Positions 30,034-30,763 of a stretch of 64,000 bases of DNA are shown here, one piece after another. The stretch lies in the sequence record PQ571307; one strand, given 5' to 3'. Made by a program: the position numbers and the translations under genes. Each line of letters opens with the position of its first letter. The stretch's first letter is position 1. Below the pieces are notes generated by a model. The model saw nothing but the letters and a program-made list of their open reading frames with translations. It was not told the origin of the DNA and did no database searches. This DNA is from Shigella phage SF1-1.

Positions 30034-30705
30034 CTATTTAATGTTAAGTCTGGCACACAAACGAGAAACAGTTTTAGCATCCCATTTACCACCACGTGCT
30101 GTTGCTATTTTCTTACTATTGAATTTTTCAGCAATAGTTTTGTAAGGTGTATTTAAATCTCTAAGGATCTCCAAGCGTTCACGGAATGTCTCTGCAAAAG
30201 CGTCTGCTTTAACAGAGTTGTATTCCATTTTTCCTTTTCTACGTGCAGCGGCAGTTTTAGGATTAGCACTACCTAATAAAACACCTTTACTTTTTGCTAC
30301 AGCAAGACCCTTTTTAATACGATCAGCAATACCTCTAACTTCTTGTTCAGCCAGAACAGATAGAAGCTGTATAACCATTTTATCTGCGTCTGGCATGATG
30401 GCTATCTTAACATCGATCATCTCCAGAAGAGTTGCTACGGAGGCGTTGTTACGACCCAAGCGGTCAACTTTAGCTACCAATAAAGTTGCTCCGGTAGCTT
30501 TACACATTTCAACCGCTTTAACCAGTTCTTTACGTTGCTTCCAATCGCCCTTACCCGAATAGTATTCAGAAAATTGACCAATAACTTCCGCATCAGGCAC
30601 AGAGTCTAAGAAGTAACGGATATCGTTCTCTTGGCTCTCCATACCATATTGTGCCTCACCTTTTTTCTGTTTAGAAAGACGACTGTAAACAACAAACTTT
30701 TTCAT
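30034..30705 (-). CDS. serine recombinase (resolvase/invertase family)
   Basis: N-terminal VYSRLS ... Q catalytic region, LLVAKVDRLGRN motif, C-terminal HTH-like segment; ATG after AGGAGTGGTT. Confidence 0.7.
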   Translation of the reverse strand: MKKFVVYSRLSKQKKGEAQYGMESQENDIRYFLDSVPDAEVIGQFSEYYSGKGDWKQRKELVKAVEMCKATGATLLVAKVDRLGRNNASVATLLEMIDVKIAIMPDADKMVIQLLSVLAEQEVRGIADRIKKGLAVAKSKGVLLGSANPKTAAARRKGKMEYNSVKADAFAETFRERLEILRDLNTPYKTIAEKFNSKKIATARGGKWDAKTVSRLCARLNIK

Positions 30706-30734
30706 AACCACTCCTAAACCATTGTTGTATTCTC

Positions 30735-30763
30735 ACTTTACAAAACGAATAAACACTTGTCAA
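30735..30763 (-). promoter_or_regulatory. sigma70-like promoter upstream of the recombinase gene
   Basis: Minus strand reads TTGACA, 17-bp spacer, TAAAGT. Confidence 0.4.

Follow-up and report, generated by a model that had tools for sequence, protein, structure and literature searches.

A conserved small serine recombinase gene in virulent phAPEC8-like phages, predicted to be active and possibly acting between genome copies

Why lytic phages with short terminal repeats should maintain a predicted-active serine recombinase is a modestly interesting question, and it is raised by the locus at 30034-30763 of the window (the whole 64-kb stretch of DNA analyzed here). The initial annotation placed at this locus a resolvase/invertase-family recombinase with its own promoter in the middle of an array of small genes, took the genome to be T4-like, and offered an inversion switch, a mobile-element remnant or a part in module shuffling as possible roles. 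The genome is instead phAPEC8-like: the window belongs to Phapecoctavirus (Stephanstirmvirinae), is 98-99.5% identical to phAPEC8-like phages and finds its best nucleotide match in vB_EcoM_DE16 (99.5% identical; genome of 151,363 bp). Phages of this type carry short direct terminal repeats (PMC12695924, PMC12210895), and a 329-bp repeat that both opens and closes the Schickermooser record falls at 41386-41714, from which it follows that the window crosses the end of the linear molecule. About 11 kb separate the recombinase from the left physical terminus, and more than 70 kb lie between it and the tail-fibre genes. The mid-array position was described correctly, in that the gene sits within a long array of small minus-strand early genes (~23-56 kb), which is interrupted by a 1.6-kb ORF-free region at 41.1-42.7 kb. 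Its neighbors are small phage ORFs without assigned function (no transposase, and no plasmid replication or partition module), and the non-coding DNA around it amounts to 64 nt upstream and 8 nt downstream.

The open reading frame listed for this locus spans 30034..30711 on the minus strand, with its stop codon at 30034-30036. We place the likely start at the ATG at 30705, giving a protein that begins MKKF, because all homologues begin at an equivalent M(K)KF and because an AGGAG ribosome-binding site (30711..30715, minus strand) precedes this codon by 5 nt. The resulting coding sequence (30034..30705, minus strand) specifies a small serine recombinase of 223 residues, an assignment resting on the reading frame, on Pfam, PHROG and PDB matches, on a structural model and on identical phage proteins, which together uphold the family originally proposed. 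Two sequence motifs are diagnostic: YSRLS, containing the predicted nucleophile Ser11 (codon 30673..30675, minus strand), and VDRLGRN, which comprises residues 80-86 (D81-R82-L83-G84-R85-N86 being encoded at 30448..30465, minus strand). The catalytic serine is present and invariant in all 53 homologues aligned, down to ~31% identity, as are Tyr7, Arg9, Asp81, Arg82 and Arg85. Alignment to Tn3 and gamma-delta resolvases pairs Asp81, Arg82 and Arg85 with gamma-delta Asp67, Arg68 and Arg71, while from motif comparison we take Ser11 and Arg9 to be the equivalents of gamma-delta Ser10 and Arg8.

The resolvase N-terminal domain (PF00239) matches residues 5-142 (E=5e-18; 66 bits against a cut-off of 23.3), and the first part of the "Recombinase" domain (PF07508) gives a weak match at residues 187-216 that falls below its cut-off (18.2 against 21.1 bits). 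In PHROG, the protein falls into family 125, named "DNA invertase" (E=3e-32). Among solved structures, sequence comparison puts Tn3 and gamma-delta resolvases first, and a profile built from the 53 homologues matches Gin (3e-17) and Tn3 resolvase (7e-16) about equally well. NCBIfam returned sub-threshold matches only (YneB, XisF, Mpi), PADLOC gave no match, and Rfam gave none anywhere in the 64-kb window.

The predicted fold has a catalytic domain at approximately residues 1-140, helix E included, and a helical C-terminal DNA-binding region at 147-223. An AlphaFold2 model (mean pLDDT 89) displays a β-α catalytic core, a long helix E (residues 109-139) and four C-terminal helices; the C-terminal DNA-binding part that had been read from the sequence thus has a counterpart in the helical region of the model. 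Foldseek searches with this model retrieve the Sin, TP901-1, Bxb1 and PhiC31 recombinases (E=1e-6 to 1e-4). Judged from residue conservation and the model, 30034..30705 is predicted to encode a catalytically competent small serine recombinase.

A sigma70-type promoter-like site, identified by scanning and from the sequence itself, occupies 30735..30763 on the minus strand (TTGACA at 30758-30763, a 17-nt spacer, and TAAAGT at 30735-30740), within the 64-nt gap between the recombinase start codon and the stop codon of the upstream gene (30776-30778); the interval 30034-30763 is therefore exactly gene plus promoter. Sites of this kind number 38 in a 14-kb region where 39 are expected, such that a single match does not exceed chance. 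Credibility comes from conservation: DE16, UP17 and Schickermooser retain both hexamers without change, and eight diverged phage lineages have an equivalent pair (TTGACA, 17 nt, TAxxxT) 35-45 nt ahead of the start codon, irrespective of the surrounding genes and at both of the recombinase loci described below (the lineages include alia, FKP3, phiWec181, Tr1, a metagenomic relative, a Vibrio phage and ICP1). A promoter of the recombinase's own at 30735-30763 is accordingly a plausible, if putative, feature.

The gene is conserved to a degree that its surroundings are not. All 64 Phapecoctavirus records with this locus contain it, and in 62 of them the protein is 100% identical, set within a 3-kb region that differs by ~2%; across the same 64 genomes, the protein of the adjacent 136-aa gene ranges from 92% to 100% identity, and the downstream neighbor gene is confined to Phapecoctavirus. 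The UP17 and window copies differ at 10 nucleotides, every one of them third-position and synonymous, and the DE16 copy differs at two, both synonymous. Outside the genus, a 57%-identical orthologue is intact in 56/56 of the Justusliebigvirus records matching at ≥95% (phi92 gp053 among them), and further orthologues occur in Klebsiella relatives (52-55% identity) and in Citrobacter phage Tr1 and the phiWec phages (67-75%). The two exceptions among the 64 are both records of Schickermooser, in which ~ten deletions of 1-5 nt are clustered over 350 nt and extend into the upstream gene. We considered Schickermooser as a natural knockout and rejected it: deletions clustered in this way, and reaching the neighboring gene, look like poor assembly rather than decay, and hence are not taken as evidence of dispensability.

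These comparisons indicate that the recombinase is a core gene of the Stephanstirmvirinae under strong purifying selection. Since all UP17 differences are synonymous, the gene is no decaying remnant; a pseudogene, or the remnant of a mobile element that had been suggested, is contradicted by this selection and by the presence of the gene in every member of the subfamily. The same observations bear on the idea that the protein is a domesticated DNA-binding factor, an early transcription regulator or architectural protein that no longer recombines. Tn3-family resolvases also repress their own promoter, and a gene that has its own promoter and lacks a visible substrate for recombination could have been retained for such a purpose; the nucleophilic serine and all catalytic arginine and aspartate residues are, however, invariant in the 53 homologues, and purifying selection has kept residues that mere binding does not need, making this a decidedly improbable account.

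The gene is not new, being already annotated in public records, where the identical protein is called "serine recombinase", "resolvase", "DNA invertase" or "recombinase family protein" (around a dozen records mis-name it "methionine ABC transporter ATP-binding protein"). The authors describing SKA64 remark on the recombinase (ORF101) and guess that it keeps concatemers as single genomes (PMC10282059); the ESCO5 paper reports that no recombinase genes were predicted (PMC10269720), and ESCO5 nonetheless encodes the identical protein. We found no experimental work on this gene in the literature.

Comparison with sister genera reveals that the recombinase occupies two alternative loci. Justusliebigvirus, FKP3 and a metagenomic relative at 51% identity (contig L019) carry it in a plus-strand module, where it follows genes for lysozyme, PhoH, HslV and a methyltransferase and two small genes, and precedes, further along, those for a Ser/Thr phosphatase and DprA. 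This lysozyme-to-DprA module is also present in the window, without the recombinase; synteny with alia, FKP3 and L019 identifies the "empty" counterpart as a 45-nt gap holding a terminator-like hairpin (14556..14600, plus strand), flanked by a 67-aa gene (14352-14555, plus strand) and a 64-aa gene (14601-14795, plus strand). The alia locus is matched over only ~51% of its length in every Phapecoctavirus record, each of which has its recombinase at the second place. The unit that differs between the loci is promoter plus ORF, and its occurrence at two loci in sister genera implies that it moved as a cassette at least once. The PhoH-side position is probably ancestral, because the more distant metagenomic relative has its recombinase there too, and on these sequence comparisons the left-end position is probably the outcome of one old relocation, now fixed. 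Of the earlier suggestion of mobility and module shuffling, it is the mobility of the unit itself that survives; we find no support for the recombinase driving the shuffling of modules.

Might the unit, then, be a selfish promoter-plus-gene cassette, moving between loci and phages with little benefit to its carrier? The fixation of the gene at a different locus in each sister genus, its clean presence or absence at the Justusliebigvirus position, a promoter that travels together with its ORF, the accessory location of the homologue in ICP1 and the wide spread of the family on plasmids and islands would all suit such an element. Yet neither locus has terminal repeats, a target duplication, a crossover core or shared sequence visible at its junctions, and only two loci are seen, each fixed in its genus, as befits an old single relocation rather than ongoing mobility. 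The gene is moreover universal and more conserved than its neighbors, and its between-genera identity (57%) is in the range of syntenic neighbor proteins (~58-85%, estimated by eye), consistent with vertical descent. We regard the selfish-cassette explanation as quite unlikely.

The proposal of an inversion switch requires a pair of inverted crossover sites, and it draws some encouragement from the name of PHROG 125, from a family profile that fits Gin as well as it does resolvases, and from distant prophage homologues lying beside tail genes; an invertase of this sort might flip a phage segment as a host-range or expression switch. Within ±8 kb of the gene, however, the best inverted pairs are 70-85% complementary and AT-rich, with none above chance. 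Self-BLAST of the 64-kb window gave, as inverted matches, one palindrome (42024-42061) and one 25-nt terminator pair only, and self-BLAST of the whole 151,363-bp DE16 genome gave one palindrome, its other matches being direct repeats of the immediate-early region. When exact inverted words of ≥17 nt were counted in DE16, terminator hairpins and ~5 pairs emerged; Markov simulations gave an expectation of 2.8 pairs and never more than 6. Taken together, the searches for inverted and direct repeats yielded words at chance level, the hairpins of terminators and early promoter/hairpin units recurring at 43-50 kb; one promoter-like element is repeated at 26866 and 57303. A 17-nt inverted word links ~29790 with ~13690, near both recombinase loci; we judged it a chance occurrence (~5 such pairs versus 2.8), and as inversion between these points would leave the gene unmoved, it lends no support to relocation by inversion.

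The public records tell the same story. A 25-kb query around the gene is colinear with, and undergoes no strand switch in, the Phapecoctavirus records listed; where a second place was matched, it falls at the ends of the record in nearly every case listed (the exceptions being PNJ1809-36 and vB_EcoM_01, with 2-3 places). Records WPEC1-6 were examined as rearrangement variants and set aside, their junctions looking like concatenated contigs rather than site-specific events; the WPEC join next to the genome end carries a doubled 155-nt piece. The distance of the tail-fibre genes (>70 kb), and a protein of 223 residues with a longer C-terminal region where invertases have ~190, also speak against an inversion function, which we now consider very improbable.

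Integration fares no better. The filamentous Ralstonia phage phiRSM offers a precedent, in that its small resolvase-like recombinase can reportedly integrate the phage genome, and a small serine integrase permitting rare integration or cryptic lysogeny could be imagined here. A phage related to phiRSM has been described (PMC5608472). Against this, a 4-kb query around the gene matched none of 5,426 complete E. coli genomes, and hence revealed no integrated copy among them; the SKA64 study found no prophage matches (PMC10282059), and all isolates are described as lytic. Such an integrase is accordingly the most far-fetched of the roles weighed here.

A recombinase acting at a single site per genome would call for no inverted pair, and loop-less palindromes were considered as candidate crossover sites. 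One 38-bp dyad at 42024-42061, centered on AT, stands out; it is located in the 1.6-kb ORF-free region at 41.1-42.7 kb, and would be a candidate single site for cyclizing or resolving replicating genomes. The counterpart region of Justusliebigvirus contains a different palindrome with an odd center, and nothing ties either palindrome to the recombinase, such that we do not adopt them as its site. Within the 64-nt upstream gap, the best dyad (9/12) is at chance level and yields no candidate site; the regions upstream of ten homologues were likewise all at chance level, with the exception of a 34-bp dyad on a Klebsiella plasmid (2-nt center, 35-65 nt upstream of the recombinase gene).

Relatives beyond the subfamily provide the remaining clues to function. 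Homologues with 24-38% identity are found in large virulent Vibrio and Shewanella phages, and one with 30% identity resides in an accessory block of some ICP1 isolates. Full-length homologues (35-40% identity over 95-99% of the protein) are encoded on 124 plasmids, mostly non-mobilizable, of which several are only 5.8-6.5 kb in size (for example, Klebsiella pIIIF7SW-P1_2, Marinovum pMaD11 and the 6.4-kb plasmids of Synechococcus); on these, a non-coding stretch of 650-680 nt precedes the recombinase gene. Relatives with 32-40% identity are found at more than 500 bacterial loci, where the commonest neighbors are tyrosine integrases and restriction-modification genes, a mobile-island setting. 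Two prophage homologues (37-43%) adjoin tail genes, and no invertible segments were detected next to them. By these comparisons, the family is a general class of small serine recombinases of mobile elements, with no close characterized member.

The island setting is one of several observations that could be read as pointing to foreign DNA (host chromosome, prophage, plasmid or satellite) as the substrate, the recombinase serving early takeover of the cell or competition between elements. The position of the gene in an early small-gene array with a host-type promoter, the lack of a detectable target in the phage genome, the bacterial homologues beside integrases and restriction-modification genes, and the 30%-identical homologue in the accessory block of ICP1, a phage in conflict with satellites (the ICP1-PLE system; PMC6002521), are all compatible with this. 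No candidate host site emerged, however, nor is there DNA similarity around the gene in any of the 5,426 E. coli genomes; and the hosts are many (E. coli, Klebsiella, Citrobacter) while the protein is invariant within a genus, meaning that any host site would need to be highly conserved. (The recombinase's flanking region is shared also by the records of Salmonella phage UAB_1 and Pseudomonas phage PsgM04F.) The case for action on foreign DNA being purely inferential, we regard it as the main rival to the reading favored below, tentative and rather unlikely.

We favor instead resolvase-type action at one site per genome copy, taking place between copies during replication, for three reasons: no intragenomic pair of sites is found, the conserved enzyme is probably an early product, and the nearest full-length relatives belong to small plasmids. 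We would put this reading, built from sequence comparison, at about one chance in three. As envisaged from the chemistry of the family, the recombinase may perhaps be synthesized early by host RNA polymerase and act in resolvase fashion on a site that might be present once per genome. Dimers would bind this dyad-symmetric site and two sites would synapse into a tetramer, whereupon Ser11 would break each of the four strands, with a 2-nt stagger and through 5'-phosphoserine links; half of the tetramer would rotate through 180 degrees before the ends are rejoined. The partners would be separate genome copies (replication intermediates, units of a concatemer or genomes brought together by co-infection), not a pair of sites in the same copy, in a role comparable to that of plasmid multimer-resolution recombinases or of Cre-lox in P1.

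Several observations pull against this resolvase-type reading. No candidate site was found for it, and the upstream gap measures 64 nt compared with the 114 bp of a res site. We know of no need for site-specific resolution in phages with short direct terminal repeats that package from concatemers. Bacterial homologues are mostly in islands beside tyrosine integrases and restriction-modification genes, and the 37-43%-identical prophage homologues beside tail genes are in a setting typical of invertases.

Site-specific recombinase genes are a routine red flag for temperate behavior in phage-therapy screens, and this one is carried by every phAPEC8-like and phi92-like phage, many of them therapy candidates, with no sign of a role in integration or inversion. 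For annotation and for such screens, it is useful to recognize a selected core gene that is often mis-named as an ABC transporter and has no E. coli prophage counterpart. More broadly, the virulent subfamily might keep an active recombinase as a core early gene for a hitherto undescribed kind of recombination during lytic infection, either at one site close to the replication origin or genome end, so as to cyclize or resolve replicating genomes, or on the DNA of the host or of rival elements, in takeover or counter-defence; we think this doubtful on the sequence comparisons to hand, and if true, it would be a new role for small serine recombinases.

The direct orthologues of the window gene are phi92_gp053 and the corresponding genes of phAPEC8, ESCO13 ("resolvase"), UP17 ("serine recombinase") and SKA64 (ORF101). 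Two groups differ in architecture. The IS607-type serine transposases, considered and dismissed as a match, have the reverse domain order, the catalytic domain of the phage protein being N-terminal rather than following a MerR-like helix-turn-helix. Large serine recombinases exceed 400 residues and possess a full Recombinase domain, a zinc-ribbon and a coiled coil, in contrast to a 223-aa protein with a partial, weak PF07508 match. The Gin/Hin/Cin/Pin invertases belong to the same superfamily, include the best profile match (Gin) and lend their name to PHROG 125, and Gin and Cin are likewise phage-borne; for the phage recombinase, however, no invertible segment, inverted sites or tail-fibre context was found, its carrier is virulent where those of Gin and Cin are temperate, and its C-terminal region is different and longer, in a protein of 223 rather than ~190 residues. 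Invertases of this type also use a Fis-bound enhancer in or close to the gene, and Fis sites are too degenerate for recognition by sequence.

Tn3 and gamma-delta resolvases resemble the phage protein in catalytic domain, catalytic residues and helix E, and share the layout of an N-terminal catalytic and a C-terminal DNA-binding domain, at an identity of ~20-25%. From alignment gaps, the phage loop preceding helix E is ~7 residues shorter, and the C-terminal region, with 77 residues and four helices, is longer and looks like the opening part of the Recombinase domain found in large serine recombinases. The phage gene also lacks the transposase partner of Tn3 resolvase, and has no room upstream for a res site, which in Tn3 is 114 bp (PMC2602789).

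For function, we consider two further systems as points of reference. Cre of phage P1 is a tyrosine recombinase of a temperate plasmid-prophage that cyclizes and resolves genomes by means of one lox site per genome copy; no lox-like site was found in the phage genome here, and Cre-lox would be a functional analogue of the proposed role only. The recombinases of small plasmids differ from the phage gene in their upstream non-coding DNA (650-680 nt with dyad sites, against 64 nt), and their role in multimer resolution is itself an assumption; in the protein, they share with the phage recombinase both the short loop before helix E and the C-terminal motif IA..LN..G..T.RG..W.

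A recombinase identical to that of the window is mis-named in GenBank as "methionine ABC transporter ATP-binding protein" or "putative ABC transporter ATP-binding protein" (records of AV125/AV126, TSP7_1, Mt1B1_P17, phAPEC8_ev052, 3A1/10C3/118_SA_NWU and others), an error passed from record to record. Host labels in this group are likewise affected, several records being assigned to Campylobacter, Acinetobacter or Klebsiella phages yet being 98% identical to coliphages. In Schickermooser (MK373788; stretch L009 of that record, 3850-4450, equivalent to window 30400-30860), ~10 deletions of 1-5 nt each fall within 350 nt, from the last part of the upstream gene through the first (5') half of the recombinase coding sequence. 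The record is otherwise clean, and the cluster probably reflects poor assembly quality at this place and not a natural knockout. Beyond the coliphages, a small serine recombinase of 30% identity is present in some isolates of ICP1 (Vibrio phage ICP1 2017_DRC_48, stretch L006, 4001-4756), where the gene also has its own TTGACA promoter and lies within a gene block that stands in place of gp31-gp40 of other isolates.

The window spans the physical genome end, as a direct terminal repeat of 329 bp, identified by its match to both ends of the Schickermooser record, lies inside it as a single copy at 41386-41714. This position falls within an ORF-free stretch of 1.6 kb in the early array (41100-42727), in which a Rfam search returned no match. 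The same region holds four copies of an 18-nt AT-rich near-palindromic element (41444, 41623, 41951 and 42461) and a 38-bp dyad at 42024-42061 (GCAATAAGTGTAAGCGTA-AT-TACGCTTGCAATTATTGC), which is bracketed by two 24-nt stretches in inverted orientation to each other (41998-42021 and 42120-42143); these elements are possible origin or packaging signals.

In BME3, a Justusliebigvirus (PP239276, stretches L022/L023), the same ~150-nt stretch, containing a 41-nt palindrome, occurs twice, 1.2 kb apart (record 601-749 and 146769-146917), with one copy on each side of the annotated 342-bp terminal repeat; this suggests either a true terminal repeat that extends beyond its annotated length or the duplication of a unit. 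Compared with the other genomes of Phapecoctavirus, the WPEC1-6 records (155-161 kb) show rearrangements (loci in WPEC1, PV659873, stretch L104, 9020-9490 and 35307-35348). Here, an inverted block (DE16 116-125 kb) is joined, via a doubled 155-nt piece, to the first gene past the genome end, a junction that looks like contig concatenation; the absence of an 8.8-kb block (methyltransferase, PhoH, lysozyme and rhamnose genes) may be a real deletion.

Host-like metabolic genes occupy the + strand of the window at about 1-23200. Named after the DE16 and UP17 annotations, they include a class Ia ribonucleotide reductase, four dTDP-rhamnose synthesis genes (rfbA-D equivalents, roughly 7-10.2 kb), glutaredoxin, lysozyme, PhoH, an HslV-like peptidase, a Ser/Thr phosphatase, a DprA-like protein and Sir2.

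Within the array, a family of paralogous small genes on the - strand (27982-28368, 29260-29658, 32143-32469, 32902-33228 and about 36160-36460) shares the C-terminal motif ..LPFN....VDRVNWVKERV.. and is detected at the DNA level as direct repeats D1 and D2. A separate direct repeat of 66 nt (80% identity; 26866-26930 and 57303-57366) combines a + strand promoter-like element (TTGACTTTTT..TACCCT) with a conserved leader (CGAGCGATAGCGAGTA); the copy at 26866 is surrounded by - strand genes, within 360 nt that contain no ORF (26665-27026), and so may drive an antisense or small RNA.

Repeated intergenic units were also observed between the small - strand genes at 43100-49900, each consisting of a GC-rich hairpin (e.g. 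GCGGGAACTATTCCCGC) adjoining a sigma70-like promoter (TTGACA...TAAACT, - strand); the genome has no other direct repeats of sizeable length. Promoter/stem-loop cassettes have been described for the hyperplastic regions of T4-type phages, and the hairpin/promoter units are reminiscent of these.
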